A stretch of DNA of 64,000 nt from a virus, in IMG/VR virus record IMGVR_UViG_3300005077_000010, positions 27,660-91,659 of that record; one strand, 5' to 3'. Positions 2,081 to 54,800 of the stretch are shown piece by piece. The notes below the pieces were generated by a model, which ran no database searches, had not been told where the DNA came from, and worked only from the letters and a program-made list of their open reading frames with translations. The position numbers and the translations under genes are program-made. Numbering within the stretch: position 1 is the stretch's first letter; every line of letters starts with the position of its first letter.

Positions 2081-2999
2081 TTAATATCTCCTGTAACTTA
2101 CAAATAAACTCTTGACCACGAATATCTGCTGTATGATTATTATGTACTAAATTATAACCGTTATTGGATAATTCATTTAGTTTATTTTTATCATTTAGTG
2201 TACAGGCTAATTGTTCTTTAATAGGTTTATCTAATGTTAATTCTATCATATTAACATCATTTATAAAACCTAAATCTGTTAATTCTGGAATATAGGAGGA
2301 ACATAAAATAGAATTACACGCGGGAATTTCAAATGTTTTTAGCACTACGTAATTTAAAATAGAAGTACAACTAATAGAATAAATTGATTTATTTAAAAGT
2401 TGAGCATATTGAATTTCCATAGGCCAATTATGAATAGATGCTGTATAACCAGGGTGGGGAATGTATGTATAACCAGAATATCCGCTTAGTTCTATATATA
2501 CTTTATTTCTTAGTGGGTAATAAGGAGTGGTAATTGCCCCAGTTTGTAAAATTATAAACTCTTTTTTAAGTTTATAGTCTTTAAATATTGCTGTATCAAT
2601 ACAAAACGGATTCCATATAATTTTTAGTTTTTTAAAAATATAAGGGTGTAAAGATTTTAAAGGAGAATAATAAGTGGTTGCCCCAGCATTAAATCCGTAA
2701 GCTATATAAGTAGCTATAGCATTTTTAATATATTTTCCGTGTAAGTCATTTAAAAAAAATATTTTAGGTATATTTATTTTTTTCCACCCTATAAAGTTCA
2801 GTAAATATATATCAGTATAAACAAGATCGTAATTATTGTTTATATATGTGTAATTTTGTAACAATTCTGGCGGGTTGTTATCATTTTCAACAAAAATTGA
2901 GGTAACATCTGCAAACTTAGACACAGCCAACCTAAATCCTTTAAAATAATGATTTAAAATTCTATTTGTTTTATCTCGTGTTACCCATAAAATTCGCAT
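2073..2999 (-). CDS. GT-B glycosyltransferase, CgeB/Glyco_trans_1_2-like
   Basis: DLH, ID..IF, YPLR, KTFEIPAC, GYNLVHNNHT...R. Paralog of 4972..5979. Confidence 0.75.
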   Translation of the reverse strand: MRILWVTRDKTNRILNHYFKGFRLAVSKFADVTSIFVENDNNPPELLQNYTYINNNYDLVYTDIYLLNFIGWKKINIPKIFFLNDLHGKYIKNAIATYIAYGFNAGATTYYSPLKSLHPYIFKKLKIIWNPFCIDTAIFKDYKLKKEFIILQTGAITTPYYPLRNKVYIELSGYSGYTYIPHPGYTASIHNWPMEIQYAQLLNKSIYSISCTSILNYVVLKTFEIPACNSILCSSYIPELTDLGFINDVNMIELTLDKPIKEQLACTLNDKNKLNELSNNGYNLVHNNHTADIRGQEFICKLQEILNE

Positions 3000-3011
3000 T
3001 AGTAACTGTCC

Positions 3012-3899
3012 TTATTTTTTTAATACGCTAATTTTTTTTAGTGCTTTTTCTAGATACATAGTATTTGAGTAATTATATTTTAAATCTTTTGCAACTTCTG
3101 TTTGAAATTGTATTCTTTCTTTTATATGTGTAGCCCAATAATTAATTGTAGAACTTAACTCAATATTAGGTGCTATAATCATATGTTTATTAGGAATAAA
3201 AGGATTATATGAGTTATGTTTATTACACAACACTAATTTGTGTTTACAGGCGATTAGTAAGTAGTGCAACGGCGGAAATTTATAATTTTCATAAGCTTTA
3301 ATTATTAAATTTATTTTAGAATTTAGTATTAAGTTATCTCTTATTGCTCCATAAACATTTGTATAATTAACTATTTTAAGTTTACTAACTACAATTTGCC
3401 GGTATTCTGTCATTGTCCCAAATGTAAATACCGTGTTTTGTTTACTATTTGGATATATTATACTACTGGAGTTATTATTGCTATAGGCTTGTGACCAGCC
3501 TAGGGGGCAAGAAATTAAATTCTGTGTTCTATTTAATAACTTATTAGGTAAAAATGTATAAAATATGTAATCAAACTTAATTTCTACTTTACTAAGGCGC
3601 TTTAATATACTCGTTTGTTCTAATAATACTAAAATATTAATAGAAGACCTGTAGCGTTTTATATACATATGTTGAAATCTTTCATGATGTAGTAGTTTAA
3701 ACCGTCCTACAATAAAAAAATTTAAGTCGCTTACAGGTGGTAGTTTGGTGCTATCCATATCTATAATAAATACTGTATTAACAACGTTTATTCCTAGTTG
3801 TGTTAATGATTGTTTATAGGCTTGTGCTAATTCAATAAAAGTTAAAGCACTACCAAAAATAATAAGATTACATTTAATCATTTTTGTCATTACCGCCAA
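3012..3899 (-). CDS. Putative GT-B glycosyltransferase-like protein
   Basis: FGTMTEYR, YGAIRDNLILNSKINL and the C-terminal helix pattern resemble the GT-B C-domain. Cluster context supports this. Start uncertain. Confidence 0.5.
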   Translation of the reverse strand: MAVMTKMIKCNLIIFGSALTFIELAQAYKQSLTQLGINVVNTVFIIDMDSTKLPPVSDLNFFIVGRFKLLHHERFQHMYIKRYRSSINILVLLEQTSILKRLSKVEIKFDYIFYTFLPNKLLNRTQNLISCPLGWSQAYSNNNSSSIIYPNSKQNTVFTFGTMTEYRQIVVSKLKIVNYTNVYGAIRDNLILNSKINLIIKAYENYKFPPLHYLLIACKHKLVLCNKHNSYNPFIPNKHMIIAPNIELSSTINYWATHIKERIQFQTEVAKDLKYNYSNTMYLEKALKKISVLKK

Positions 3900-4956
3900 G
3901 TATTAATCTATTATTAATTAAGTGTACCGTTGTAGTTTTTATGCTGTTGTCTCTTTTTTTATGTTTTTTATTTCGCATAGGTAACGCATTATATTCGTCT
4001 TTTGTCCTCCATAAATCTAAGGATTTCTTCTTCTTTTTTGGAACGGTAGATAAAGGTATTATAGGTGGCTGGATAAGTAAAGGTACGGGCGGATAAACTT
4101 CTTTATTTTCATTACCGTTTTCGTTATCGTTTTCGTTATCATTATTATTATAATCATAGAACCAATAATTATTTTGTGATTGGGTATCTGTACAAAATAT
4201 TTGATTATTTTTATTTCCCCATGAATATATTAAATTATTATGATGCTCTTCCCAATTATCTTTAGTAAACGACTTAAAAAGTTTTAATTTTTTTAACACC
4301 TGTAACTCTTTCTTAGTTGTTTTTGGGTGAAATAAATGCCATATTTCTTCATTAATTTGATCTAAAGTATACCCATATGCTTTAAGCTTAAATACAAAAG
4401 CATTATCTTCTCCTCCCCAAGACGGGTAAAAGTCTTCAGGAACGCCGTTAATACTAAAAAATACCTCACGCTTAACAACTGTAATTCCTCCAGCTGCGGC
4501 GGATACTTTAGGAATAAAAACCTTTGTAACCTCTAAATTATTCAGGCTCTTAGTGACCATGTATTTTTTAGTAGCATCGTCTGATAAGTAATTAATTTTT
4601 TTCCACCCAAACGCACAATTTCCAGTATACTTTTTCAGCTTTTCTACCCAATCAGTAGAAATTATAATATCATTATCTATTAATATAATATAATTCCCAA
4701 TAGATAAATAACGTACCGCTAAGTTTAATACCCACGCTCTATGAAATTCTCCTTCAGATTTTATGTATAAATATTTAATATTATTATCATTTATTAAATC
4801 TAAAGACTCTAAATAACTTTTCGGTCCTGTTTCACATATGCATATTTCAGAATTAATATTTTTAGTTAAGTTTACTAGTTGGTCAATACAAAATAAAATA
4901 TAATCATAGTTTTTACGTAATTCATGATATTTATAAGGTATAATAAACGAATACAT
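3874..4956 (-). CDS. GT2/GT7-like glycosyltransferase with low-complexity C-terminal tail
   Basis: SFIIPY, FHRAWVLN, DNDI (DxD), INGVPEDFYPSWGGEDNAF (GT7-type WGGED), HLFHP. Confidence 0.85.
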   Translation of the reverse strand: MYSFIIPYKYHELRKNYDYILFCIDQLVNLTKNINSEICICETGPKSYLESLDLINDNNIKYLYIKSEGEFHRAWVLNLAVRYLSIGNYIILIDNDIIISTDWVEKLKKYTGNCAFGWKKINYLSDDATKKYMVTKSLNNLEVTKVFIPKVSAAAGGITVVKREVFFSINGVPEDFYPSWGGEDNAFVFKLKAYGYTLDQINEEIWHLFHPKTTKKELQVLKKLKLFKSFTKDNWEEHHNNLIYSWGNKNNQIFCTDTQSQNNYWFYDYNNNDNENDNENGNENKEVYPPVPLLIQPPIIPLSTVPKKKKKSLDLWRTKDEYNALPMRNKKHKKRDNSIKTTTVHLINNRLILGGNDKND

Positions 4957-4971
4957 TTTTAGTTGGTTATC

Positions 4972-5979
4972 CTATAAAGAATTTAAAAACTTTGTGAACC
5001 TTTCACATCTAATTTGCATTGTATGGTATTTATGTACCATATTAAATCCGTTTTTTGTTATTTCACTTATGTCTTTACGATTAAGTATTGTAGTAATTTG
5101 CGAATTTAAATTAGTATTATTGTAAATTACACACATAGTACTGTGATTAAATCCTAGTTCTTCTAATTCTGAAGTTAAATTACCAATTAATAAAGTATAA
5201 CTTGCAGGAATTTCAAAATACTTACTAACCGCATAGTTATACACACTTGAGGTGCTTATTGCTCCTATATAAGTATTAAGTAACTTAGAATATTCTTGTA
5301 ATCTGTAAGGAGTTTGTGCTTTGTTATCTATAAAATTATTATGGTAATGCGGTAACGTTGTTATTAATTTTGAATTTATTTTACTTATTTTAAGTAACTC
5401 GCACCGTAATGGATAATGTCCTTTATTTATTCGTCCAGATAATAGTACATTATTTGTTTTTTTATTATTCCAATTTTTAAAAATAGTAGGATCAATTGCT
5501 AAAGGTAACCATAATGAATGTTTAATATGACTATATACTAAGTTAGTTAATATTTGTTGTTGTGTGGCGTATTTATATGTATAAACAAGATAATTGTACT
5601 TATGAAGCACCAAAGATTTTTTACGCAGTTTACTGATTTTATTATTATGCACATCATTAATTAATGCTATTTTAGGTTTATTAATATCATGAAGATTAAT
5701 ATCAGGGTAAACTCCCAATGCGTCAGTAATTATGCAGTCATAAGTGCTAGAATGTAACAAGTCATTTATATTTTGTGTATCAGGTAGTTTATTTATGTTA
5801 TTGTTTATGTTTATTATATAATTACTTTCTAAAGTATACTGTTCTGGTTCGCGTAAAACTACATGTATATTATGCTGCTTTTTCATATACTTTAATAGTA
5901 AAGGATAATATTGAAATGCCCTATGTGGTCGATTTACCGATAGCCATATGATATTTAAGGAATTATTATCCGCTGCCAT
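4972..5979 (-). CDS. GT-B glycosyltransferase, CgeB/Glyco_trans_1_2-like
   Basis: DVH, IDPTIFK, YPLR, KYFEIPAS, GFNMVHKYHT...R. Confidence 0.75.
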   Translation of the reverse strand: MAADNNSLNIIWLSVNRPHRAFQYYPLLLKYMKKQHNIHVVLREPEQYTLESNYIININNNINKLPDTQNINDLLHSSTYDCIITDALGVYPDINLHDINKPKIALINDVHNNKISKLRKKSLVLHKYNYLVYTYKYATQQQILTNLVYSHIKHSLWLPLAIDPTIFKNWNNKKTNNVLLSGRINKGHYPLRCELLKISKINSKLITTLPHYHNNFIDNKAQTPYRLQEYSKLLNTYIGAISTSSVYNYAVSKYFEIPASYTLLIGNLTSELEELGFNHSTMCVIYNNTNLNSQITTILNRKDISEITKNGFNMVHKYHTMQIRCERFTKFLNSL

Positions 5980-6764
5980 TTATTATAATATCTCTCTTTA
6001 CTAATTGTTGTTATTTTTTTATCGTGCCGTATCTTACTATATTCTTTAGAATTATGCCCTGTATTAACTGCTTTAAGTCCTTTAACAGCTAACATCGCAA
6101 TTTTCCAGTTGTTATGTACCATCTGCGCGCAAAAATCCATATCTCCCCATCCTATATAATATTCAGGATCTAAATTACATGTTTTAAATACTTCCTTTCG
6201 TACACACATTGTTGCTGATCCTATAGCTTTGACATCTTCTATAATTTTTTGTGGAGAACGGTGAACTAACATATTGTTTTGTTCTTCCCACACAGCCGTC
6301 CAAGGATCTAACCATAATCCTACTGCACCTATTGTTGGATTATCTACTAATATAGAAATTAAACTTTCAATACCATAACGCGGCATATGAATATCATCGT
6401 CTAATGTTAAAATAAATTCACTATCAAAATGATTTAATGCTCTATTAACTACATCGTGGCGCGGAATACCTGAACCGTGATTTTTATAAGTAAATTGCAC
6501 ATCATAATTTTTATAACCCCTATGTAGAAGTTCTAAAACTTTTAGTTGGTATTCTAATGGCATTTGATCAACCGCTTGTACTCTTAAGCAGATATTAATA
6601 GGGATACAGGCTGTTTTAGCATTAATTTTTAGTGTACTAAATAAATCTTTATACCTAAAAAGAGATAATGTGGCTAATGTTACTATTGGAGGATTATTAA
6701 TTATGTTAACTATTGTTTGTTTATTTAATACTCCTTCGCTATTAGCAATGATAACATCTAGCAT
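5955..6764 (-). CDS. Glycosyltransferase, GT2 family
   Basis: NHGSGIPR, ILTLDDDI, ATMCVRKEVF, IGWGDMDF. Confidence 0.8.
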   Translation of the reverse strand: MLDVIIANSEGVLNKQTIVNIINNPPIVTLATLSLFRYKDLFSTLKINAKTACIPINICLRVQAVDQMPLEYQLKVLELLHRGYKNYDVQFTYKNHGSGIPRHDVVNRALNHFDSEFILTLDDDIHMPRYGIESLISILVDNPTIGAVGLWLDPWTAVWEEQNNMLVHRSPQKIIEDVKAIGSATMCVRKEVFKTCNLDPEYYIGWGDMDFCAQMVHNNWKIAMLAVKGLKAVNTGHNSKEYSKIRHDKKITTISKERYYNKWQRIIIP

Positions 6765-12269: not shown

Positions 12270-14891
12270 ATGGCTGAATTAGAAGTAACTATGGAAGAAT
12301 GGTTACAATTATGCTATAAAAGACCTGATGTATTTGCACATTATTATTTTGATCATATAATTAGATGCCCTAGTAGTAAGTTTCATTTTTTACTTTATGA
12401 TTTAATCTATAAAATTAACCAAAGTAACTATTCTAATCGTGTTGCTATTGCCGCCCCAAGAGGTAACGCTAAAACACAAATTATTCATGTTATTCTACCT
12501 ATTTGGTGTATCGCGTTTGAACAAAAAAAATACATTGTAATGGTTAGTGATACAAGTAGAGCGGTAGAAGCTAATTTGGAATCTATTAAATATGAGTTAA
12601 CAACAAATGAAAAATTAGCAGAACATTTTCCTCATATAGTAGGGGAAGGGCCGAAATGGAAAAAGGAAGAAATTGATACAAATAATAATGTACGTATTGT
12701 AGCTTTAGGTGCAGGAAAACAATTACGCGGTACACAAAAAAAGGGTGCTAGAAGACCTGACGCAATCCATCTTGACGATCTCGAAAATGATGAGCATGTC
12801 AATACAAAAGCGCAAAGAGATAAATTAGAGGATTGGCTAACTAAAGTTATTTTAGGTATGGAGGGTGCAAAAGAAGAAGGTTATAAAATGGATGTTATTT
12901 TAACGGGAACAATTATTCATCCAAAAAGTTTATTAGCTAAATTAGTCAGCCCATCTGAGTTTTTAGGTTGGGATAAACATTTATTTAAAGCGGTTTATAA
13001 AGATTCTAAATCTCCATTATGGCAAACATGGAAAGACATTTATACTAATTATTCAGATAGTAATAGAATTGAAACAGCTGAATTATTTTTTAATACGCAC
13101 AAAAAAGAAATGTTAGAAGGGGTTGAAGTTTTATGGCCCGAAGGTGACCCATATTATAGAATACAAGAATATAAAATTAATGCCGGAATAAAAGCCTATA
13201 GTTGTTTTAAACAAGGCACTCCTATTATTTTAGAGGATTACAGTTTTAAAAACATCGAAGATATAAAAGAAGGTGATAAAGTAATAACTAAAGACGGAAG
13301 TTCACAAAAAGTAACATACGTGAATTCTAGGTATACCGATTCTGATATATATAAAATTAAAATAGCGGGGGTATCTCAAACAATAGAAGCAACTGAAGAA
13401 CATCCATTTTTAATTTGGCCCCAAGTAAAATATAAACAATACATACTAAATCACCAACATTTATCAGCATATTTAAGCGGATTTAATACTGAATATAAAC
13501 AGCAAACAGTAAATAACAGAATACTTACTAACGAAACCCGATGGAAGTTTGCAAAGGATATAAATGTCGGGGATGCTGTTATTATGCCACTACCGCCAAA
13601 AGTGCAGGGAAAACACCTATGTGACCCTGATTGGTGGTGGTTAATTGGGTATTATTTAGCGGAAGGGTGGACAAGTACAACAAATAATACAGTAAATTTT
13701 GCGGCTCATATTGATGAAATCCCATATTTTAATGAAGTAATTAGAATAAGTAAAAAATATAACTACGGACAAACTTTTACTATACGAGAAGGTAGTAGTG
13801 AAAGTGATAAGGTTATTACTTTAACTTTTAGTTCTCCTGAGTTATCACAGTATCTTAAATTATATGGAAAAGGAGCAAAGAACAAACATTTACCGTATAA
13901 TGAAATTAAATGTTTGTGCAAAGATTGTTTTTCTTCTTTATGGGGTGGTTATATTGCAGGAGATGGATATGACATTCGAGGTTATAAAGGAGTTAATAGT
14001 ATTAGTTGGCAGTTACTACATGATTTTCAAATTGGGTGGTTAAGACATAGAGAAATTACTTATATGTATAAAATGAAAGATCATGGAGAAATTAACTTTC
14101 GTGGGAAAACATATTCTACTCAGCCTTTATGGAGTTTACAAAAAATAGAAACTAAACGGGCAAAACAAGTTTGGATATATGAAGAAAATTTATACAGTAA
14201 AATTCAAAAGATAGAGAGAGTTATAACAAATCAGCCGACAAAAGTATATGGTATTTCAGTAGACGTTAACCACAACTACACAATTCCAAATGCGGTTGTC
14301 AAGAATAGCGAAAAACAGAATAATCCAATTGATCCAAGTTCTGTGCTATTTGATACAGAAAAAATAGTTTATTATAACAGAAGTGATATTGATTTAGATA
14401 CTTTAATTATTTATGGCGCAATTGATCCTGCTAGTGGAGATGCTAAAAAGAAAGGGGACTTAACTGCTATTGTAACTATCGGTAAAAGTCCTAAAACTGG
14501 TATAATGTATGTTTTAGATGTGAAAGCTGATAATACACTAAGCCCTTCTGATAGTATTAAATATATTAAAAGAATGCATGAATTATATGATTATAGATAT
14601 TTTGGTATTGATTCTGACGCATTGAAATTATATAAAGATTTAATATTACGAGAAGTACCTAGTTTAATGGGAAAACTAAAATTATATAACTTAAGAGTAA
14701 ATAAACGTTCTCGTATAGATAGATTAGAACCTCCCATAAATAGTGGATTAATACAAATACAAAAAACTCAATACGAATTACTAGATGAGTTAATGCACTT
14801 TCCAAAATCAGAATACGATGATGTACTTGATGCTTTGGAAATTGCGTCTACTGTAGCTGGTAATCGTAAATGTAGGATTTTAACATACTAG
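12270..14891 (+). CDS. terL: Terminase large subunit, intein-containing (about 505 aa after splicing)
   Basis: Walker A APRGNAKT, Walker B IHLDDLEND, ILTGTIIH, RNase H-like GAIDPA and DDVLDA. Confidence 0.95.
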   Translation: MAELEVTMEEWLQLCYKRPDVFAHYYFDHIIRCPSSKFHFLLYDLIYKINQSNYSNRVAIAAPRGNAKTQIIHVILPIWCIAFEQKKYIVMVSDTSRAVEANLESIKYELTTNEKLAEHFPHIVGEGPKWKKEEIDTNNNVRIVALGAGKQLRGTQKKGARRPDAIHLDDLENDEHVNTKAQRDKLEDWLTKVILGMEGAKEEGYKMDVILTGTIIHPKSLLAKLVSPSEFLGWDKHLFKAVYKDSKSPLWQTWKDIYTNYSDSNRIETAELFFNTHKKEMLEGVEVLWPEGDPYYRIQEYKINAGIKAYSCFKQGTPIILEDYSFKNIEDIKEGDKVITKDGSSQKVTYVNSRYTDSDIYKIKIAGVSQTIEATEEHPFLIWPQVKYKQYILNHQHLSAYLSGFNTEYKQQTVNNRILTNETRWKFAKDINVGDAVIMPLPPKVQGKHLCDPDWWWLIGYYLAEGWTSTTNNTVNFAAHIDEIPYFNEVIRISKKYNYGQTFTIREGSSESDKVITLTFSSPELSQYLKLYGKGAKNKHLPYNEIKCLCKDCFSSLWGGYIAGDGYDIRGYKGVNSISWQLLHDFQIGWLRHREITYMYKMKDHGEINFRGKTYSTQPLWSLQKIETKRAKQVWIYEENLYSKIQKIERVITNQPTKVYGISVDVNHNYTIPNAVVKNSEKQNNPIDPSSVLFDTEKIVYYNRSDIDLDTLIIYGAIDPASGDAKKKGDLTAIVTIGKSPKTGIMYVLDVKADNTLSPSDSIKYIKRMHELYDYRYFGIDSDALKLYKDLILREVPSLMGKLKLYNLRVNKRSRIDRLEPPINSGLIQIQKTQYELLDELMHFPKSEYDDVLDALEIASTVAGNRKCRILTY
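13203..14306 (+). mobile_element. Intein with LAGLIDADG endonuclease (368 aa) in TerL
   Basis: Block A CFKQGTPI...NIEDIKEGDKV, block B ATEEHPF, endonuclease motifs LIGYYLAEG and GGYIAGDG, C-terminus VVKN/S. Exteins rejoin as KAYS-SEKQNNP. Confidence 0.93.
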
Positions 14892-19509: not shown

Positions 19510-19550
19510 GAATAGGGGGGTAGGGGTAACTCTACTCCCCTATTCTATTT
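19510..19550 (+). terminator. Intrinsic terminator-like hairpin after MCP
   Basis: GAATAGGGGGGTAGG-GGTAAC-TCTACTCCCCTATTC followed by TATTT. Confidence 0.7.
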
Positions 19551-20020: not shown

Positions 20021-20860
20021 ATGAAAGAGAATAGAAAAACAGGCGCGATTCATCAACTAGATAAAAAATTAAGTGTTCCGAAACATAATATTATTGGATT
20101 AGATGGAAAACCCTTAAAGAAAGAATTTAGGCGGTTTGATGCTGATCCTGACAAAAAGAAATTGCTTTGTATTTATGTTCCTGTATCTATGCCTTTTGTA
20201 TACAGAAAGTTTTTTGCCAATTTTTTACGAATCATTCATCCTTCTCATTTTATTAATTGGAAAAAGTATGGTGTAGTAAGTTATTATACACAGATACAAA
20301 CGACATTTCCATTATGTAAAAATAGAAATGAAGCGGTATTAAAAGCATTAGAGCATGAAGCAGATTATATAATGTTTGTGGATGCTGATATGCAACATCC
20401 GGCAGAGATTATAACACAATTATTAGCGCATCAGTTACCAGTTGTTAGTGGTATGTATTTTCATCAAGCTCCGCCTCATTTACCTGTAGTTTATAAGCAC
20501 AAAGAAGGTATTCACTATACACATTATTATGATTATCCTAAAGATGAGTTATTTACTGTAGATTTAGTGGGAATGGGATGTATGTTGGTAGACACTAAAA
20601 TCTTTAAACATATAGAATTACCTTATTTTGGTTATCGGTCTAGTAGAAAAGATGGGATAGTTGAAGGGACAGAAGAAGTTATATTTTGTGAAAAAATTAG
20701 AGAAGCCGGTTTTGATATAGTTGTCGATCCAAAAATTCAGTGTACTCATTTTGCTATTGAAGATGTATCTGAAGTTTCATTTGACAGTTATATGAATGAA
20801 TACAAAACAGGGCAAGCATTATTAGAAAAATTTGGAGAAACTTATAGAAATGCTACTTAA
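20021..20860 (+). CDS. GT2-like glycosyltransferase in head module
   Basis: KNRNEAV, YIMFVDADM (DxD), VVSGMY, GMGCMLV, EEVIFC, VDPKIQCTH. Confidence 0.85.
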   Translation: MKENRKTGAIHQLDKKLSVPKHNIIGLDGKPLKKEFRRFDADPDKKKLLCIYVPVSMPFVYRKFFANFLRIIHPSHFINWKKYGVVSYYTQIQTTFPLCKNRNEAVLKALEHEADYIMFVDADMQHPAEIITQLLAHQLPVVSGMYFHQAPPHLPVVYKHKEGIHYTHYYDYPKDELFTVDLVGMGCMLVDTKIFKHIELPYFGYRSSRKDGIVEGTEEVIFCEKIREAGFDIVVDPKIQCTHFAIEDVSEVSFDSYMNEYKTGQALLEKFGETYRNAT

Positions 20861-21119
20861 TATAATTTTGTATATATTATGTGTTTATGGTATAGCAACA
20901 ATTATTTCTTCAGAATATATATTTTCATTAGTTATAGATAAATTTAAAAAATATAAAACTTTGTATTATTTACTAACTTGTAATAAATGTATGACAGTTT
21001 GGGTTGGATTTATAGTATCTTTATTAGGGTTTGGTATCATTAGTCCTATAGTTGACCCATTTATTGCTTATACATGCACACTATTTTTAAATAAATTTCT
21101 CGAAGATCCTGAAATTTAG
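20850..21119 (+). CDS. Small membrane protein with CxxC (DUF1360-like)
   Basis: Hydrophobic segments, YLLTCNKCMTVWVG. Confidence 0.6.
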   Translation: MLLNIILYILCVYGIATIISSEYIFSLVIDKFKKYKTLYYLLTCNKCMTVWVGFIVSLLGFGIISPIVDPFIAYTCTLFLNKFLEDPEI

Positions 21120-21148
21120 TTGATTATTAAATTTTAAAATGATATCAT
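21120..21148 (+). promoter_or_regulatory. sigma70-type promoter upstream of the endolysin
   Basis: TTGATT-N17-TATCAT with extended -10 TGn. Confidence 0.5.
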
Positions 21149-21187: not shown

Positions 21188-21781
21188 ATGGATATCATAC
21201 TAAGTAACGCCCATTCTAGTTATGCTAAAGGTGCTTCTGGAGATTTTGGAGGCAAACTTTATGCTGAATATGATTTATCTGCCTCTATAAATAAATTATT
21301 ATACGATTTACTTATTAAAGCTGGGTTTACTACTACTATTATTGACGCTTCTCATATAACTCCATATTCAAAATCATTAGAATATAAAGCTAAAGCAATT
21401 AGTGATTACACCCCAAAAGTGGCAGTTGAAACTCATTTTAACGCAGGGCCGAATGTCGTTTTATCTAAAGTTAGTTGCGGAATGGAAATTGTATATACTG
21501 ATAGGCATACTAAACAATGTGAATTATTAGCTCAATGTTGTATGCAAAGTATGATACATTCACTGCCTTTTAAAATACGAAGAGATGGTAGTGGATTATA
21601 TAAACATAATAAAATTTATTTATTAAATACTGTTACATGTCCAATTATTATTGTCGAAGTTTGTTTTATTACTCATCCTATAGATAGATTATTTTTATTA
21701 CACCCTAGAGCTATTGATATTATTGCTAATAGCTTATGTACTGGCATTATTAATTTTTTAAAAGTTAACAAGGGGGAGTAA
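21188..21781 (+). CDS. Endolysin, N-acetylmuramoyl-L-alanine amidase (Amidase_3)
   Basis: IILSNAH, AEYDL, VETHFNA, IIVEVCFIT..D (Zn ligands H/E/H and catalytic E). Confidence 0.85.
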   Translation: MDIILSNAHSSYAKGASGDFGGKLYAEYDLSASINKLLYDLLIKAGFTTTIIDASHITPYSKSLEYKAKAISDYTPKVAVETHFNAGPNVVLSKVSCGMEIVYTDRHTKQCELLAQCCMQSMIHSLPFKIRRDGSGLYKHNKIYLLNTVTCPIIIVEVCFITHPIDRLFLLHPRAIDIIANSLCTGIINFLKVNKGE

Positions 21782-21782
21782 T

Positions 21783-22124
21783 GTGGGAGATAGTACATTC
21801 GGCAAAGAGGATATGTATTTATTTATGGAATCCCACAAGAATATGGTGGAACTCCATACTCTTGTGTTAACTCAACTTCAAGCTTTATTAAAAAGTAACG
21901 AAGAATCAGTTAAAAAAACAGATCAAGTATTACAAGCGATTAGTAATATGACAGATAAAATGGGAGATTATGTAGAAAAAGCTGGACAAATACAAATTGC
22001 AATGGCACAAAATCAATCTGAAAATACTAAAGCCCATGAAGCTATTAAAAATTATATGTATGTGGGTTGGGTAGGAATGGCAAGTATTATTTTATTACTT
22101 GTGTTAACATTTATAATAGTATAG
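21783..22124 (+). CDS. Coiled-coil protein with C-terminal TM helix (holin/lysis-associated candidate)
   Basis: Helical body plus terminal hydrophobic stretch, directly after the amidase. Confidence 0.5.
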   Translation: MGDSTFGKEDMYLFMESHKNMVELHTLVLTQLQALLKSNEESVKKTDQVLQAISNMTDKMGDYVEKAGQIQIAMAQNQSENTKAHEAIKNYMYVGWVGMASIILLLVLTFIIV

Positions 22125-22135
22125 CAGGATTAAAA

Positions 22136-23329
22136 ATGGATAAGATAGATCAAATTACAACGGCCACAATTCTTGATAACATTCCAGCATTAGTATACGT
22201 AAAAGATACCAATAATAGATTATTAAAAGTCAATAACTCATTAGCCGTTGCATTAAATCTACAAAAGGACAAAATAGAAAACAAATCATGTTGGGAGTTA
22301 TGTCCTCATGATTTAGCAGACATATATTGGGAACATGATCAACTTATCCAAATAAATGGCGAACCGATAAAAAATATTGTAGAAGAAATAGTAGTTAACG
22401 GGGTTAGACGATGGCATAGAACAGATAAATATCCATTAAAAAACGAAGCAGGAAAAGTAATAGGTATTGTGGGTATTTCAATTGATATCCACGCAAATAA
22501 GAAAGAACACGAACAATTAGTACAACTGCAAACAGCAATGGAATTTTCTCATAGTGTAGTAATAGTTACAGACACAAAAGGAATTATTACATATGTTAAT
22601 CCGCGTTTTACACAAGTTACAGGTTATACGCGAAAAGAAGCATTAGGTAAAAGTACTAGGATGCTAAAATCTGGTAAACTTTCTCCATCTATATATACAC
22701 ATTTATGGGATACTATTACTAATGGAAATGTATGGAGTGGAGAATTTTTAAATAAGACAAAATCAGGAGAATATTATTGGGAAGTAGGAAATGTAGCCCC
22801 AGTTAGAAATACAGAAGGAGAAATCACTAATTTTATTAAAGTATCTTCCGCATTAACTGATTTAAAACGTACTGTATTTAATGTTTGGAATGTATTTGAG
22901 GATTCCAATAATTTAATTGTCGTGCTAGATAAAACAATGCAAATAATTTATTGTAATCAAGCAGTGGCGTTTCAATTAGGATTCCCATCATCAAATGAAC
23001 TTATAGGAAAAAGTTGGAAAGAATTTATTCCTACAGAGTCAAAACATATTGTTGAATTAGTACATAGTGAATTAATTAAAGGATCATATAAAGTAAAAGA
23101 ATTTGTAAATGATATTCAAGATATTAATGGTAATACTTATATGGTACGGTGGTTTAACTCAAATATTAATGGAAATACGGGGTTAACTTTTAGTATTGGT
23201 GTAGTAGCAAAATCTACAATCAATATTAATGACTCTGTTGAAACTATACGTAAACATTTTAAAATGTCTATTGATAAAGATAAACATTTTATTTTAGCCA
23301 TGAAAAAAAGTTTACAACATGAAATATAA
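22136..23329 (+). CDS. Triple PAS-domain protein without output domain
   Basis: PAS1 NIPALVYVKD...KYPLKNEAGKVIGIVGISIDI. PAS2 VTDTKGIITYVNPRFTQVTGY...LWDTITNGNVWSGEFLNKTKSGEYYW. PAS3 VLDKTMQIIYCN...LGF...ELIGK. Start set at ATG 22136 (AGGA RBS). Confidence 0.9.
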   Translation: MDKIDQITTATILDNIPALVYVKDTNNRLLKVNNSLAVALNLQKDKIENKSCWELCPHDLADIYWEHDQLIQINGEPIKNIVEEIVVNGVRRWHRTDKYPLKNEAGKVIGIVGISIDIHANKKEHEQLVQLQTAMEFSHSVVIVTDTKGIITYVNPRFTQVTGYTRKEALGKSTRMLKSGKLSPSIYTHLWDTITNGNVWSGEFLNKTKSGEYYWEVGNVAPVRNTEGEITNFIKVSSALTDLKRTVFNVWNVFEDSNNLIVVLDKTMQIIYCNQAVAFQLGFPSSNELIGKSWKEFIPTESKHIVELVHSELIKGSYKVKEFVNDIQDINGNTYMVRWFNSNINGNTGLTFSIGVVAKSTININDSVETIRKHFKMSIDKDKHFILAMKKSLQHEI

Positions 23330-45895: not shown

Positions 45896-48800
45896 ATGAG
45901 TAATTCTACCAATGTTGGGCAAATATATCTAGAAATGAATATGGGGCTAGAAAAGTTTTATGCCCGTATAAAAGAAGCTGAACGTGCATTAGCATCAATG
46001 ATAGAAAAAGTTGAAAACACACAAGTTAGTATGCAAATCGATGATCCTAAATTGCAAGAAAGTTTAGGAAAATTAAAGTCATTTTTAACGGTATCTAATG
46101 AAATATTTGCTAAAGCGACTAAAGTAATAGAAACATACCAACAAAAATCTGGTAGTGCAGCAGAAAGTACAAAAAAGGTTATTCAAGTTTTTGATCAATA
46201 CCACAAAAGTTTAAATAGTACCTTAAAAGGTTTATCATCAGTAAAAGAAAAAGTTGCGACTCATTATTCTGAAGTAGAAGCAGTAATGAAGGGCAATGTT
46301 AAAGATAGAGCTAGTATGACACTTTTACCATCAATGCCCACTCCGTTACTGCGACAAGGGGCGGATGAAGAAAAAATAGCGTTAATAGGACTAGAAACTA
46401 GGTTAAAAGCATATATTAAGCTAATAACTCAAGGAACACAAGAAGAAAAATCGGCATTTCAACAAAGAAAAACAGGATTAGAAACATCAATAAGAGTACT
46501 TACTAATTTAATTGGTACGTATGAAAATTTACAAGCAGTTATAAGTAGTGTTGGCGGAGCTAAATTTGATAGATTAATAAGTGTTCCTGGCATCTCAGAT
46601 GTAATAACGCCTATAAAACAAATGTCTGAATATTTAAGTGGCACATTAAGTAGGTCTATTGCTGGAATAGATGAGTTATTAACCGCTACATTTAACAATC
46701 CTCATGCGCTCACGGCGGAATCATTAGACTATTTCAATCAGCAATTACTAAAAACATACAGCTTATCTGCCAGAGTTGAAGGTATAATGGGGGCTATAAA
46801 CTCCATAGTACAAAAGTCTAACGCTATATTAACAGCATCTGGAGATAGTTGGTCACGTATAGGAAAAGAAGCTAATGCTGTCAGGTTTACAAAGATTACA
46901 AAAGAATTACAAGATGCAAATACTAAAATGCAGGAGTTATCTACAGTAGGACTAGGAAGTGACCAGAGTTTTTCAATATTAGGGCAATTAGAAAAATCAC
47001 TACATACGGCTCAAACAAGATTATCTAAAACATTCGGCACACCTATTAATCAATCATTTGAGCAAGCTATATTTTACTCAGAAAGTCTTAAAAAAACATT
47101 AGATTCTCTACAAGTCACAAGAGGAAAAAAGGATGTTAGCGAACTTACCAGTAATTTAAAAGCGACACTTAAAAATATAGAAGCTATTGAACGCCAAGCA
47201 ACAGATTTAAATTTAAGAGAGCTTGCTGGTGGATCAGAAACTGCGGCAAATGCAATAAAAGAAGTAAGAAATAGTTTAGAAGACGCAACAAGAGCAACAA
47301 CAGTAGTAAAAGAAAAAATTATGAGTTTAGGTGAAGCAATGAAACAAACGGCAGAAATATTTGGTAAGCCGTTTGTTAAAGCTGCTATGGATCAAAACAC
47401 CAAATCTATTGAAGCTACTTATATGGCATTAAGTAATTTAGATAAAATAAGAGGACAAAGCGATTTAAAAGCGAAAATTTTAAAAACTACTGACTTGGAT
47501 AAAAAAAGTTTTGCGCGAACCACTCTAGAATATGAAGGATTAGACCAATCTCTTTTAAAAGTTGCGTCTTCATTTACTAAATTAGCTAAAACGGGAAGAG
47601 AAACAGTATTTGATGTACTAGGCCCAGGATCAAGTGGTAAAGTAGCTGATTTAGTAAACCAATTAAAAATTCTAGGCTATAGTTTTGGAGATACATTTAA
47701 ATTAGGTACAACATACGCTATGGATTTTGCGTCACAACTTAGATGGATGCAAGCGGATATTGTTAATACAATAAACACCTCCAAAGAATATCAAGAATTA
47801 GTAAGTTCATTTGGGGCAACAGGGGCGCGACTATTAATTAAAAAAAGTGATACAGATACAGCAAGAAAAGGACTATTAGATTTACAAAATAAATTTACAG
47901 ACTTTTTAAATAGTATGGACGCACATGTAACAGTTAAAGGCCACACAATTACAACAAAATTAAGAGATATATTCGCTAAATCTGCACAAGAAGCAAACCC
48001 AAGGGCAATAAGTTCAGAAAAAATAGCACAAGATATCTCAAAAAGTGTTTTAGATTTCGCCTCTCCACTAAAAGAAGCGGAAAATACTGTAATACGAATA
48101 CAACGTGCATTTGTTCAATTAGTTAAAGAATCGTCAGGAAAAAATACATTCGCGGCAAAAGCAGAAGAAGTTAAAGTATTTCAAGATTCTTTAATTAATT
48201 TACAAAATGCTATTAATATGTTATATAAAACGCTTACACAGGCTGAAGGTGATGAGTTACAACAGCTATTAGTATTTAAAGATTCTGGCGTAGCAGAAAA
48301 AGCCATTTTAGATATTTATAATCTTACTGAATCAATAGGAAAATTATTTACAACAAAAGAAGGATTAAAAGATTTTGAAGCCGCTTGGCAATCCGGCGCT
48401 ATTATCCATATGATAAATGGGGTAGCTCAAGGTATACAAGAATTATCAGGGGTAACAAAAACCAAAACAAAAGACATGACGGCTGACGTTGAAGAATTTG
48501 TTAGCATAATCCGTTCGGTATTAGGAACTTTAAAGACTGAATGGGAGGAAATGGCGGCACTACAGCAGGTAACAAAATTTAGTTTTGGACAATTTGAAGA
48601 GTTTTATAAGACTAGTGCTTTAATAGACGGGAATACACAAAAAATTAAAGAAAATGTAGAAATGTGGGAAAGATATAACCAAGAATTATTAAATCTTAAA
48701 ACACAACCTGTAGAACAATTTATAAGTAATATGGGAAATAAAGCGCATACAACCGCATTACAAGTAGAAGAATTTGCTAGTAAATTGGCGTCTGTAGAAG

Positions 48801-51800
48801 AGTTGCAAAGTAAATTTGTTGCTGCTGGAGGTAGGGGCGTTGCAGGAAAAACAGCCCCTATGGAATTATACCAAGTTAGATACGCCGCACTACTAAAAGA
48901 TAGAATAAAAGCTACAAAAGAAACAGTAGATCGTGAGTATGAAAGTTATCACCGAAACGCCATAAAATTACAACAACTAGATAAGGGGACCGCAGAACAA
49001 CGAGAAGAATATTTACGTAAACAATTAGCAAGATTAATTGATGAACAAAATAAATACGGTGTGTCAGTAAAAAATATGACTGACCAATTAAGAGTATGGG
49101 AAAATATTCAAAGAGAGGTCGGGACATTAACAGCGGAAGAAACAAAAGGAATTGAAAAACTTAAAACGTCAATAGCGCAATTAGGAATAACTTTTAAAAC
49201 ATCAGCAGAGTTACAGACGCAGTTAAGTAAAGGATCAGCAGCGCCAGAGGCGATGGGATTAGCTTATACAGCAGCGACTAATAGGCTATCAACATATAAA
49301 AATACATTAGAGAGTTTAATAAATACAACAGCACAGTATTTAGGAACTAAAGCGGAAGTTACAGAAGTAGAAAAGAAATATGTACAACAGCAAACTAAGG
49401 TTGAACAAAAGTTAAATAATCAAATACAGTTATATAATACTTTAACAGAAGTAGAACAATTAGTAGGAAAAAGAACATCCGTAGTTAAAGAAGACCCTAA
49501 CACACAAAAGACAACAGAAGATTATAATATATTAGAGCAAGCGGTTAATGGGGTTAATAAGCAGTTAGAAATTCTTAAAAGTTCTACACGAATTAAATTA
49601 GATCCTGGTAATTTAAAAGATTTAATAACCCAATTAAATACTATTAAAAGCCGCTTATCTTCAAGTATGCAAAAAACTGTAGACGGGCTTACTGAAAAAT
49701 TTGGTAGTTTTAAAATAGACTTTACAGTTGAATCTCATAATGCTAAAGCTAATCAAGAATTAAAACAATCTACAGAACAACTTAAAACATTAGGACAAAT
49801 AGAACAACAAGATATACGTAATAAAGAAATACGTATACAAAGAATTCAAGCTCTTCAAAATGCTTATAAACATTTAGCTTTTCCTCAAGAACAATTAAAA
49901 GTATTTTTGCAAGACGAAATAGCTATTCAAGAAAAAAGATTACAGCAAATGAAAACAGAAAATACTCTACGAGGAGGAGGTATAGTATCAGCATTAGAGG
50001 AAAAACAAGCGCAAGTAGAATTAAATGACACAAAACTCTTATATAATGATGTTCTTAATGCTTCAGAACAAGGTACACGAAGTTATTTAAAAGCACAAAA
50101 AGAAGCAAGTGAATATTCTGAAAAATTAAATAACCAAGCAAAAGAAGCTACAGGACGTTATCGTGGAGTGCAAAAAGCATTACAAAGTATTTTCTCTGAT
50201 ATTAGAAACTTAATTCAAATCCAAATTAGATGGTATACTACCCAAGCTCTTATCTTTAAGTCATTAGAAGCATTTAAAGGGCTATTTACGTTTTATGAAA
50301 CAGTAGAAACTCAAGTTGCCAAAGTAACAACCGCTCTATTAGCTCAAGCAGATGCAACAAAAACCGCAGGAGAAGTACATAAAGTTTTAACTTCTGAAAT
50401 GATAAGAACAGGAAAGTCTGCTGAAGATTTGGCTACTATCATGTGGGAATTAGTATCCGCAGGTTTAAGTCATAAAGAAGCTATGGCTGGAGTTTCACAC
50501 ATCACTAATTTAGCAGTTGGTTCAGAACTAGATCTAAATGAAACTGTACGTATTACTGCCGGTTTATTTAGAATTTTTGGGGATGAATTAGACGTTGTAG
50601 GGGGCGCAACAGCAAAATGGAAATATATTGTTGACAGTTTATCCGCAACTTTAAATATTTCACAAGTAGATATGAACGGATTAATTGCTGGATTAGGATA
50701 CTTAGTAAATGAAACAGATGCGGCAGGTATAAAATTTGAAGAAATGTTAGGTATTTTGTCTGTATTAAATAACCGCTTATTATTAGGCTCAAAAGCTGGA
50801 AGGTCGGCTTCTCGTGTAATTACTCAATTAACTTCTAACGCTAAAGAATTAGTAAAAACTTTTGGATTAGAAATTGATTATACTAAACCTCTTGATATGT
50901 TAGACGTACTTACAAAATTAAATAAAGTACTAAAAGATAATACGGTAAATGGCGAAGTAACCGTAGAAACATTTGATAAACTCCAATCTATATTTGGACA
51001 GGTAGGAAAACGTGCCGCTATTGGACTAATTACTAATTTAGAGGAGCTAGAACACACAATACATAGACTGCGTTCTGGAGAATTTGAGGGACTTACTGAA
51101 CGCATGGCCGAAGTAAAATTAGAGCCTTTGGCAGTACAAGTAAGCAAGTTTACAGCGGCGTTAAAAACTCTTAGTGTAGCAGCTATTGAACCATTTGCGA
51201 TATCACTACAAAAAATATTAAGTCTGTTTAATGAATTAGTACAAATGATGGTTAACCTTCCAAGTTTTATAAAACAAATAGGATCATTAGGACTAGGGTT
51301 TGTTGGAGTATTAACAGGAGTACACGCTCTTGTATTAGGATTAAGAGCATTAAAAATCGGAGCAGCTGTAGGGACATTCGACGCTATAGGACGATTAACA
51401 GTTAGATTAATAGGATTATCTTCGGCTTCTAAGGTAGCAGGGACGGCGTTATCACTAAATCTTGTAGGTCGTTTAAAAAATTATATAACGGCGGCTAAAG
51501 CCGCTGCAACAGCAACAACAACGTGGGGGATCGCGCAAGCGTCACATATAGGAGGGATGGCAGCGCTAGGAGGAGTAGTTACTATAGTCATAGCAGCAAT
51601 CGTAGGATTAATAGTTATATTAAACAAATATTCACATAGACTAGAAAATACAACGGCAAAACTTAAAGAATTAAGAGACACTTATGCAGACACAATACAA
51701 AATATAGAAGTTGAAACTAATACGTTTTCTTCTTTGATTGATAAATACAAAGAAGCTACACCATACACAAATGAGTGGTTAAATATAAGAAATCAACTTT

Positions 51801-54800
51801 TATCAAAATACCCTGGTTTTCTTCACCAATTAGAAGCTGAATTAATGCTTACAGGAAAAACAACAAATACAATAAAAGATTTTGTAGCGGAAAAAGAAAG
51901 ACAAGCGCGAGTAGAAGCTCAACTTAATGATATCCATGCCGCCGCCGAAAAGCAATCAAAGCTAACAGAAGATAGGTTAGAAGGTTTAACAAATAGAGTA
52001 CAAAGATACAAATTATCAATCGCGGAAATGGGGGAAAAAACACAAGAGGCATTTAGATTGGCATCTGTTGGAGCACAGTATGTCGGCCAAGGTGCGGGCG
52101 GAGCAGGAATAGGATTAGCGGCATTAGGATTAGGAACAAGAATACCAACAAAAAAATCTATACAGGCCGAATTAAAATCTTCAGAAAAAGTAATTTTTGA
52201 TTATTTAGATACATATAAAAATGTATTTGGTAAACAACTACCGGAAGCTATTTTACCTTTTGCTTTATCAATAATGTCTATTAAATCGCCATTAGAAACA
52301 ATATTTACATTAACAGAGTCATTAAATAAAGTAAAAGGCAAAGGAATGGAAGTTACAACAGCGTTTGAGCAAGCATTTAATTCTCTAGATGAAAGTATTA
52401 AAAAGAATTTAAATACAAAAGTACAAGTTAAAGTCGGAACTACACTTAATAAAGATCAAGTTACTCAACTATATAAAGATTTGCACGCTGTGGTAACCAA
52501 AGTTGCTGGGGACGATATAGGTCAAACCTCTGTAATTAAGCAGTTTCATATTTTAGTAAAACAAATAGGACTTACGTCTAAACAAGAATTTAATAAAGCA
52601 AAAGTATCATTAGAAGATTATCAAGAAACAATGGATGAGTTTGTAACGAATTTTGTAACATCTAACTTTCCTCTTGCTGTTCAGGATATGCTAAAAAATA
52701 ATGGATTAGCTTTAAATGATATAGTAAGAGAAGCAATTAAAAATAATGAAGTTCTTATAATGAAAAGCACTCCTTCAACATTAAAAAGTGCATTAGACAA
52801 TATAATAGAAGAAGTTGAAGATAAATTTGACAAGCTAGCTAATGTAACGTTAAAGGCAGGATTTTTAGGTGCATCAAACAGTATAATAGAACAGCTTGCT
52901 AATTTAAATATTGAAGCGCCAGAGCTAATAGAAGAAACAAAAAAGAAAATACAGGCGGAATTAAATGCGTTAGGAGCAGAAGGAAGAAGAGTATTTAGAG
53001 ATCAATTAGGAACAGAGGGTGTAGAAGCATTAGATAGATTAATGACAACTACAGGATTAGCGCGTTATAATTTACAAGTACTCAGAGATACGTTTATTGA
53101 TGTCAGAAATGCGGCAGAAATCGCATCACCGGCATTAAAAAACGCGTTTGCGGATGCTTTAGATCCAGTAAAACAAATGAATAATGCCACTAGCCAATTA
53201 ATTGTAGCAATGGGACAGTTGGTTGGCGAAACTAGACCAGCAATGACGCGGTATTTAGAAACAAATAAGTATATTATAAATGAAGCTCTTAGATATTTAC
53301 CAGTAGAAGCACAAAAAATACTAAGTACTACTACTACGTTAGAGCAAGCTGAATTACTAAAAATGGTAAAAGAAACGAAGACAAAAATAAGGGAAGAATT
53401 GTCAGGATTAGGAGGGCAAGTTTCACCAGGGATGTCTGAATCTATAGCATTAAAGCACTATACTGAAATGTACAATAATATTAAATCTTCAGCTAAGGAT
53501 GCTTTTGATACACAAAGACAATTAAGAGAACAATGGAGAAGTGAAACTGTAGCTGCATTAGAAGGAATACACACAGAAGAATCTAGTTTAGTAATCGCTC
53601 AATCAGAATACGCAGAAGAAAAAATTAAAATATTAAGGGATTTTGAGGAAAAGCGTAAGAAGTTAGAACAGGCATATAAGGCAGAAGAAATATTAACATT
53701 TCCTCCTAAGATACTGCAAGATTATACGGCGGCAACTACAACAACTGAAACTTTACAGCGGTCATTTGAAGAATTAACAGATAAAATAAATATGAATAAT
53801 GATGCTTTAATTTCAGTAACAAAAGGTTATGATTTACTAAAAGAAAAATTTACAACTATGGGGCAAGCTAAAATTTTAGTAGAACATAATCTATTTAAAG
53901 ACCACAAAGATGAATTAGAGAGATTTGTAACTGCACGGCCACAAGAAGTTGAAACAACATTTAAAAATATTTTTAATAGTTTATCAAGTAGTCAACAAGT
54001 ATTTTTTAATGAGTCTATAGAAATTATTAAAGCTTATCAAGGGTTAAATAGTCAACAAGCGTTACAATGGATGCAAAATTTAGTAAGTGCTGCGCTAGGA
54101 GGAGATAAAGCAACATTAGATGAAGCTATAAAAGTTTTAGTGGAAAACATCAAACAAGATATAGCAACAACTGAAAGAGTACGTTCGTCTGTATCCAATG
54201 ATATAGTTAATGCACAAGTAGATGCCGCCGCCGCGTATCAAGCTGGAATGGTTAGGGCATCAAAAACGAGTGATGCTTTACAAAATGTTAAAGATGAACT
54301 GAAAAAGGCATCACTACAAATGCAATTACAACTAAATGCTGACGAATATGCCGCACAAAAAAATCATTATAAGCGACTTGAAACTATTAGAGAAACGGAA
54401 TTAAAAGACTTACAATCATATATGTCAACATATCAACATCTTCTAGATCCTACATCTATTCAACAACTATTAGAAAAAGATTTACAAATTAATGCTAAAA
54501 TATTTGAAGAAAAGCGTAAACAGCGAGAAACAGATATAAAATTTACTTCATCTATGTATAATATAAATAAGCAATTAGCTGAAATTGAATTAGCGCGATC
54601 AGAAAGATATGCTTCTACACTTTCACAACAAACGCTAGAGCAAATAAATAAAATTGATCAACAGCTGAAAGAACTTGAGGAAAGAAGGGAAAATGCAACA
54701 GCGCAAGCACTAGCTAAAGTGACTACAACGACTCCGCTAATGGGTAAAGGATGGCACCTATTTGGATTTGGGGAAGAAGATACAACAATTGAGCAAAGAG

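Follow-up and report, generated by a model that had tools for sequence, protein, structure and literature searches.

For a lytic phage, no life-history decision matters more than when to lyse. We know of no case in which the lambda S107 antiholin, RI and RIII of T4 or LydB of P1 reads metabolic state through dedicated sensor domains. Lysis inhibition in T4 involves the holin T with the antiholins RI, which is periplasmic, and RIII, which is cytoplasmic (PMC11413866), and in vibriophage VP882 the PAS receptor VqmA-Phage couples a small-molecule signal to the lysis decision (PMC8284805). Among bacterial proteins, NifL of Azotobacter vinelandii (PDB 2GJ3 and 9QQ6), which works with NifA, is a cytoplasmic multi-PAS protein whose first sensor PAS domain binds flavin adenine dinucleotide (FAD), and Aer is a membrane-tethered FAD-PAS protein that senses how oxidised or reduced the respiratory chain is (PMC9668731). 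Here we describe a locus from an uncultured phage, located in a stretch of 64,000 nucleotides (the window) that covers positions 27,660 to 91,659 of IMG/VR virus record IMGVR_UViG_3300005077_000010. Between positions 21188 and 23329 the window encodes an amidase, a tail-anchored coiled-coil membrane protein (TACC) and a soluble protein of 397 amino acids (aa) that consists of three PAS domains and a helix (the sensor). We tentatively propose that the sensor and TACC form a two-gene phage module that ties a membrane event, most likely the timing of lysis, to the state of the sensor's input.

NifL passes its redox signal by stoichiometric protein-protein binding and not by phosphotransfer, and can in this respect be likened to the contact proposed here between sensor and TACC; the model of the whole sensor also matches the NifL-NifA entry 9QQ6 by fold. 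Unlike the sensor, NifL has retained its H and GHKL domains, and its target is a transcription activator, whereas the constant partner of the sensor is a tail-anchored membrane protein. Aer and PAS-A of MmoS (8DIK and 3EWK) give the best sequence matches to the middle PAS domain of the sensor (PAS2), and the TACC-sensor pair could rebuild an Aer-like membrane-tethered arrangement from two genes. In contrast to Aer, the sensor has no HAMP or kinase-control module, its membrane anchor is a separate protein, and His53 and Arg115 of Aer (His132 and Arg195 of MmoS) are not kept in the sensor family, in which T, A or P and S or A stand at these positions. The likeness to T4 is that small phage proteins bind a membrane lysis protein and shift the time of lysis on a signal, with RIII in the role of a cytoplasmic cofactor. 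However, there is no sequence or domain similarity to the T4 proteins in PHROGs, RI and RIII have no PAS, REC or GAF domain, and the signal in T4 is superinfection. VqmA-Phage belongs to a temperate phage and acts on transcription through a helix-turn-helix (HTH) output, whereas the sensor lacks an HTH and is paired with a membrane protein. Short LOV and stand-alone PAS proteins (PMC4335406, PMC4416707) consist of a flavin-type PAS domain with flanking helices and no output domain, and are thought to signal via partners; short PAS-only proteins of uncultured phages in BFVD are likewise output-less. These short proteins have a single PAS domain and no conserved membrane partner has been described for them, whereas the sensor has three PAS domains and a threonine, T174, in place of the LOV cysteine. 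XhlA is small and coiled-coil, is anchored in the membrane by its C-terminus, is encoded next to an amidase and is needed for lysis. TACC resembles it by architecture only, and XhlA, which belongs to the PBSX lysis cassette xhlA-xhlB-xlyA (PMC6834076), has no sensor partner. In this comparison, none of NifL, Aer, RIII of T4 or the VP882 system appears to combine the features of the TACC-sensor pair, though each step has a precedent.

Only PAS families are matched in Pfam by the sensor, over three stretches (PAS_9, 5e-34; PAS_4, 4e-31; PAS, 3e-28). The AlphaFold2 model (mean pLDDT 89.6) places PAS folds at residues 3-117, 119-239 and 240-357, followed by a single C-terminal helix at 368-396 that is modelled at lower confidence. 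Neither the window sensor nor seven further family members have an output domain of the kinase (HisKA/HATPase), GGDEF, EAL or HTH type by Pfam, and hydropathy gives no transmembrane (TM) segment in the 397-aa protein. The length is counted from the ATG at 22136; in the list of open reading frames (ORFs) the same frame begins at an upstream TTG, at 22067. A preliminary description of this DNA, made from the letters alone, had already read the order of the three genes, the triple-PAS make-up with its terminal helix and the lack of kinase, GGDEF and HTH domains, and the ORFs, Pfam, AlphaFold2 and hydropathy bear it out; the gene is also phage-borne, as had been supposed, since the window is part of an IMG/VR virus record.

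The first PAS domain (PAS1) has no sequence match in the PDB. PAS2, on the other hand, aligns without gaps to PAS-A of MmoS (3EWK, 2e-30), the PAS domain of Aer (8DIK, 4e-18) and PAS1 of NifL (2GJ3, 6e-14), and a family profile of PAS2 reaches 1.5e-34 with 3EWK and up to 1e-23 with the NifL domain 2GJ3. LOV domains, which bind flavin mononucleotide, rank behind these three among the matches. The FAD-binding PAS domains of NifL, MmoS and Aer form clusters 4, 9 and 14 in the survey of Xing et al. (PMC10468136), where the primary FAD determinant is a Trp on helix F-alpha, with an Asn as secondary determinant in the NifL and Aer clusters and a His in the Aer and AerC clusters. W191 of PAS2 aligns with W70 of Aer, and N206 with N85 of Aer (N164 of MmoS, a contact of the isoalloxazine); both residues are invariant in 15 family sequences. 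The NifL/Aer/MmoS-type flavin pattern that had been noticed in the middle PAS domain is therefore upheld by both the best sequence matches in the PDB and the two kept residues. H53 and R115 of Aer sit near the flavin N5 (PMC9668731). Because the Trp and the Asn are kept and the equivalents of H53 and R115 are replaced, PAS2 would fit the NifL type rather than the Aer/MmoS subtype; NifL likewise has no Aer-type His and carries a Glu at the aligned position. On these alignments, binding of a flavin by PAS2 is somewhat favoured. A LOV photosensor was considered and rejected, as the photoactive Cys of the N-C-R-F-L motif is absent and T174 (T, A or P in the family) is aligned with it.

The sensor is not confined to the window. 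A search of 5.8 billion proteins turned up three full-length relatives that have only PAS domains (397-419 aa; 40-49% identity), and an exhaustive profile search gave ~9 family clusters at 50% identity, all of which end in the same helix and none of which has an output domain. Full-length relatives are 36-49% identical overall with frame and length kept, and 29 alignment columns are invariant in the 15 sensor-family sequences. When related contigs were fetched via the PAS protein and the capsid protein, the order glycosyltransferase, 95-aa two-TM protein (TM95), Amidase_3 protein, TACC, PAS protein and HNH endonuclease was found to be kept wherever a contig reaches (L007, L002/L008/L011, L003/L091 and L093/L094). 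By the Nei-Gojobori method on unsaturated pairs, dN/dS of the PAS gene is 0.28 (L007-L010, dS 0.88) and 0.13 (L002-L003), similar to the 0.17-0.28 of the amidase. These comparisons support a genuine, conserved and selected sensor-type protein rather than a broken kinase. PAS1 is absent in two sublineages, one member of which, L094, joins a remnant of the first PAS1 strand in frame to the start of PAS2, and PAS1 is therefore dispensable. No mobile-element insert of the cassette falls between TACC and the sensor gene. Such inserts occur at other places: an RRXRR-HNH gene (452 aa) lies between the amidase and TACC in L002 (5778-7136) and also in L008, and is absent in L011/L003, and a trypsin-like gene with an intein (476 aa) lies between TM95 and the amidase in L094 (12568-13998) and also in L093. 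There were no family members among the INPHARED genomes, where tblastn matched only Aer-like and kinase PAS domains, and a first single-sequence scan of viral contigs with the sensor gave no match. A capsid-based scan of GTDB genomes yielded no clue to the host; one short contig of a metagenome-assembled genome matched.

TACC has one TM segment, at residues 90-113, the extreme C-terminus of the window copy. In all 13 aligned TACC proteins, the N-terminal motif D-L-x-L-L-M-E-S-Y-K/R-N-x-I-E-L-N-T is followed by a long helical middle, which varies in length, then by a conserved juxtamembrane stretch and one TM helix, after which they end within 0-28 residues. For the TACC of the window the conserved motif can be written D-L/M-x-L-x-M-E-S-Y/H-K-N-x-I/V-E-L. 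This topology is predicted to put the bulk of the protein in the cytoplasm together with the TM-less sensor. In L007, L094, L099, L101 and L103 the TACC protein carries a short and conserved extracytoplasmic tail after the TM helix, I/L-x-K-I/V-A-x-K/H-L-G-V, which is absent from the window copy.

When viral contigs were searched with the TACC alignment alone, nine further phage contigs (L099-L107) were found. In all nine, the gene directly 3' of TACC matches only residues ~240-391 of the window sensor (phmmer, 4e-12 to 4e-29), which lie in PAS3 and the C-terminal helix, together called the core. The reciprocal scan with the core added one further locus, L115. Here too TACC is the gene directly upstream; the jumbo-phage contig is 268.8 kb long and is rated 74% complete. 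Each record has a single copy of the core. All 11 distinct pairs, from eight phage lineages, have TACC and then the core in the same order and adjacent, at -16 to +25 nucleotides (nt); ten of the loci examined were recovered through the membrane protein alone or the core alone. In addition, a TACC at 61% identity (P0272) and a PAS relative (P0002) lie on the same 14,677-bp JGI contig, which suggests the same pairing. Because CheckV rates five of the L099-L107 records as 8-23% complete despite lengths of 23.5-80 kb, several of these contigs are probably pieces of very large genomes. A region-restricted search with core residues 240-397 returned only the query, by a word index that also missed known relatives. 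A complex prediction of sensor residues 119-397 (9-row alignment) with TACC residues 1-90 (5-row alignment), run without controls, scored 0.06, a value that weighs neither for nor against binding.

What precedes the core differs between phages. In L099, L101, L103 and L105 there is nothing or a short coiled coil, and L102 has a receiver (REC) domain (Pfam, 4e-15) with the acidic pocket, the acceptor Asp, the Ser and the Lys present. Degenerate receiver-like regions were seen by eye before the core of L104, L107 and L115, of which only the L104 and L107 sequences were inspected. Other inputs are PAS2 alone, PAS1 with PAS2, PAS1 with another PAS domain and PAS2 (the four-PAS protein P0085), and PAS1 with a GAF domain and PAS2 (P0086). 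In the maximum-likelihood tree of the core, the two-PAS protein of L094 groups with P0085, which has four PAS domains (support 96/94), and that of L007, with three, groups with the GAF-bearing P0086 (88/84), and the input-less proteins form one clade (97/97). Because variable inputs sit on a constant C-terminal module, the core can be regarded as the output module. Its only constant neighbour is TACC, and the partner of the sensor is most likely the adjacent TACC. The real unit would then be TACC plus a core with a variable input, and the window sensor its member with a flavin-PAS input. This two-gene module has so far been undescribed. Both of its protein families are unnamed: TACC comprises at least 73 clusters at 90% identity, all of them metagenomic and without Pfam domains or meaningful names. 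Should the output be something else than lysis, TACC and the PAS-like core would still stand as two unnamed families with a clear partner prediction.

With this in mind, a mechanism may be suggested. The 397-aa protein would be a cytoplasmic sensor subunit and TACC, encoded just upstream, its membrane partner; the fixed part of the module would be TACC plus the PAS3-like domain with its helix, and the swappable part the N-terminus of the sensor. According to this suggestion, the core binds the cytoplasmic part of TACC, and the state of the input would alter this contact, through the redox state of bound FAD in the window phage and through phosphorylation in the REC variants. The redox state of the FAD would probably report the energy state of the infected cell. 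The altered contact would in turn change what the membrane segment of TACC does, by itself or together with TM95-type proteins, resulting in a change of permeability or in holin triggering. The membrane event would be the timing of holin-type permeabilisation, that is lysis, with the pair acting like an antiholin or a holin cofactor; lysis timing is the most likely event because the pair shares a tight late block with an amidase and a two-TM protein. Domain make-up, conservation, selection, gene pairing and the exchange of inputs are shown by the data, and it is the binding of a flavin, the contact between the two proteins and the effect on lysis that we infer. If the model is true, there would be a testable way for redox state, oxygen or two-component signalling of the host to alter burst timing. 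A module that places flavin-PAS, GAF or receiver inputs on one membrane effector would also mean that phages evolve their own sensory wiring, and would offer a compact, naturally modular sensor-to-membrane switch for engineering. A more general form of the model, in which TACC and a PAS-like adaptor constitute a modular signalling system of the phages' own that takes flavin-PAS, GAF, extra PAS or receiver inputs, the latter phosphorylated by host or phage kinases, and gates the moment of lysis, would amount to a sensor-driven lysis clock unlike every described holin-antiholin system, in phages from ~100-kb siphovirus-like ones to jumbo phages of ~360 kb; as a whole this form seems rather unlikely.

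As regards lysis, three of the eight lineages have a muralytic gene no more than 3 kb from the pair, and it is of a different kind in each (Amidase_3, GH19-type and SLT). In the window, the amidase has no signal peptide or N-terminal TM segment by hydropathy, and could therefore reach the wall only through a lesion in the membrane. In L115, a GH19-type endolysin (PDB 9EOI, 3e-47; SPN1S endolysin 4OK7, 7e-36) is encoded 2.8 kb upstream of the pair, with six small ORFs in between, of which at least three have a predicted TM or signal-like segment; the stretch from the endolysin to the pair (2677-6034) looks like an extended lysis cluster. In L103, a 224-aa SLT protein with an N-terminal TM segment lies 0.85 kb from the pair on the opposite strand. 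For genomes of such size, muralytic enzymes of three unrelated kinds beside the pair in as many unrelated lineages are more than we would expect by chance, though in a small sample and among late genes, which cluster anyway. Several results weigh against the proposal. In the other five lineages, known from fragments, no peptidoglycan hydrolase was recognised near the pair, and its neighbours there are tailspikes, glycosyltransferases, a SET-domain protein and DUF1353. Amidase_3, Amidase_2, Phage_lysozyme, Peptidase_M15_4, GH108 and the GH19-type endolysin were not found in the other pair-carrying records, in a search where the GH108 control also failed and most records were small genome fractions (8-49% by CheckV). 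The lysis link may thus be particular to some phages, or be due to the common clustering of late genes. No PHROG lysis family was matched by TACC or core proteins from six lineages. TACC was also tried as XhlA (PF10779; no Pfam match in five TACC proteins at E up to 10), as DUF7201 (PF23831, suggested by the ESM Atlas; the window record and five TACC-carrying records gave no match at E up to 1) and as a known holin or antiholin (no family match), and was rejected as each of them. In PAS2, moreover, T174 and S237 stand in place of the His and Arg of Aer, and since these two residues lie near the flavin N5, flavin binding or redox tuning may differ from that of Aer and MmoS. The control of lysis timing put forward in the preliminary description thus finds weak support in the three lineages with a hydrolase within 3 kb and no counterpart in the other five, and lysis timing as the output of the pair, though possible, is doubtful.

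The pair could instead be a real signalling module in which some membrane or envelope process besides lysis is the output: it might exclude superinfecting phages, govern glycan export or the modification of the envelope by the many phage glycosyltransferases, or bring a complex to the membrane. The proximity of the amidase would then be incidental late-gene clustering. We consider this main rival to lysis timing unlikely, as it has to accommodate the three unrelated muralytic enzymes and the packing of the pair behind the amidase in the window's lineage, with gaps of 1 and 11 nt; yet it gains from the five lineages whose neighbours are a glycosyltransferase fusion, DUF1353, SET and tailspike or depolymerase genes, from the glycosyltransferase near the start of the window's own block and from the absence of a match between TACC and holin families. 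The PAS protein might instead be a decoy that heterodimerises with multi-PAS kinases or cyclases of the host and blocks their signalling. PAS domains commonly dimerise, and many bacterial kinases and GGDEF proteins have PAS domains that share 40-47% identity with PAS2. However, the region common to all relatives is PAS3 with the helix and not the kinase-like PAS2, the core is always paired with a phage membrane protein, and a region-restricted search of limited sensitivity gave no close cellular counterpart of it. Relatives that carry a REC domain or nothing in place of the PAS inputs would be intolerable for a PAS decoy, and PAS1 is dispensable, so that the jamming of host PAS kinases, which had also been suggested for this protein, is improbable. 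Small HNH genes in phages are often packaging accessories or mobile genes, and the sensor could regulate the small HNH endonuclease encoded next to it, for instance in DNA packaging or cleavage of host DNA. In the window's lineage this gene (111-131 aa) overlaps the PAS stop in all members and is vertically inherited at 33-50% identity (89% between L007 and L010). But no HNH gene was found downstream of the core in any of the ten loci of other lineages with the HNH profile of the lineage, and the downstream genes scanned there with Pfam are DUF1353 or have no HNH match; the HNH gene is therefore outside the conserved unit and its regulation by the sensor very improbable. That the sensor is a decaying, functionless fragment of a captured host kinase is hardly credible: the missing output domain would fit, but frame and length are kept, the position is fixed, and the dN/dS values and invariant columns given above speak of selection. 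The suspicion of a one-off truncated kinase fragment under no purifying selection, raised in the preliminary description, is contradicted by the same evidence. We tentatively retain a sensor-TACC module, with lysis timing as its most likely membrane event.

The pair belongs to a tightly packed plus-strand block that follows the major capsid gene and a strong terminator-like hairpin (Table 1), and whose first member is a 144-aa ORF. The spacing is 1 nt between the amidase and TACC and 11 nt between TACC and the sensor gene, and the sensor and HNH genes overlap by 11 nt. A hairpin scan up to 24600 found no second terminator-like hairpin after 19545, and because of this and the tight spacing the block is likely to be co-transcribed. 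The earlier statement that the three genes lie behind one promoter is supported in so far as co-transcription is concerned, but not for the promoter itself: promoter-like sites in the region are rarer than chance (20 found, 30.6 expected from shuffled sequence). The 197-aa Amidase_3 protein is likely the endolysin. TM95, for which no Pfam family and only a weak PHROG match were found, is a candidate holin. It is kept at 45-57% identity in the window's lineage, always 5' of the amidase, which exceeds the conservation usual for holins, and its relatives of 95-103 aa (L007 4475-4786, L002 4736-5044, L094 12196-12498) have the conserved C-x-x-C.

Table 1. Features of the sensor locus and its surroundings (window coordinates).
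Feature	Position	Strand	Basis or remark
Terminator-like hairpin, 16-bp stem	19510..19545	+	directly 3' of major capsid gene
Glycosyltransferase	20021-20860	+	Pfam; second in block, after 144-aa ORF
TM95, 95-aa two-TM protein with CxxC	20832..21119	+	hydropathy; weak phrog_781
Promoter-like site TTGATT-17-TATCAT with TG	21120..21148	+	consensus match only; inside 68-nt gap preceding amidase
Amidase_3 N-acetylmuramoyl-L-alanine amidase, 197 aa	21188..21781	+	PF01520, E 1.5e-17, full length; phrog_435 endolysin, 6e-20
TACC, 113-aa tail-anchored coiled-coil membrane protein, GTG start	21783..22124	+	hydropathy, alignments
Sensor, 397 aa, soluble, PAS1-PAS2-PAS3-helix	22136..23329	+	Pfam, AlphaFold2
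PAS1, residues 3-117, PAS_4 type, accessory input	22142..22486	+	Pfam, model
PAS2, residues 119-239, NifL/MmoS/Aer-like flavin-type	22490..22852	+	PDB alignments
PAS3, residues 240-357, first part of conserved core	22853..23206	+	model, core alignments
C-terminal helix, residues 368-396, second part of core, D/S..R..F/Y-K..I..D-K/R..I	23237..23323	+	
HNH endonuclease, 111 aa	23319..23654	+	Pfam/PHROG; start overlaps PAS stop by 11 nt

The source record of the window is 91.7 kb long and is rated ~80% complete. By Pfam and PHROG, the window encodes a terminase, a portal, a scaffold, tailspike-like giants and a 3682-aa tape-measure-like protein, and its major capsid gene is split by a LAGLIDADG gene. 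The 873-aa large terminase (12270-14891) has PHROG matches that are interrupted by a stretch matching an intein-bearing ribonucleotide reductase family, and it probably carries an intein insertion. The 3682-aa protein (45896-56944) matches tape-measure PHROGs 167 and 1272 over ~1900 residues, which may imply an unusually long tail or a multi-domain tape measure. On the large-phage fragments L099 (4508-9321) and L101 (852-5851), genes for a SET-domain protein, a DUF1353 protein and a 930-aa GT1-methyltransferase-GT9 fusion flank the TACC-core pair. Other phage contigs (L004 2908-4628, L005 9779-11469 and L006 1104-2824) encode a PAS protein of 417-428 aa with a TM anchor, and after it comes a 145-aa receiver-like gene; ribonucleotide reductase genes lie nearby, as does a 307-aa ORF whose N-terminus is of the peptidoglycan-binding type. 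This pair is a separate phage signalling system.

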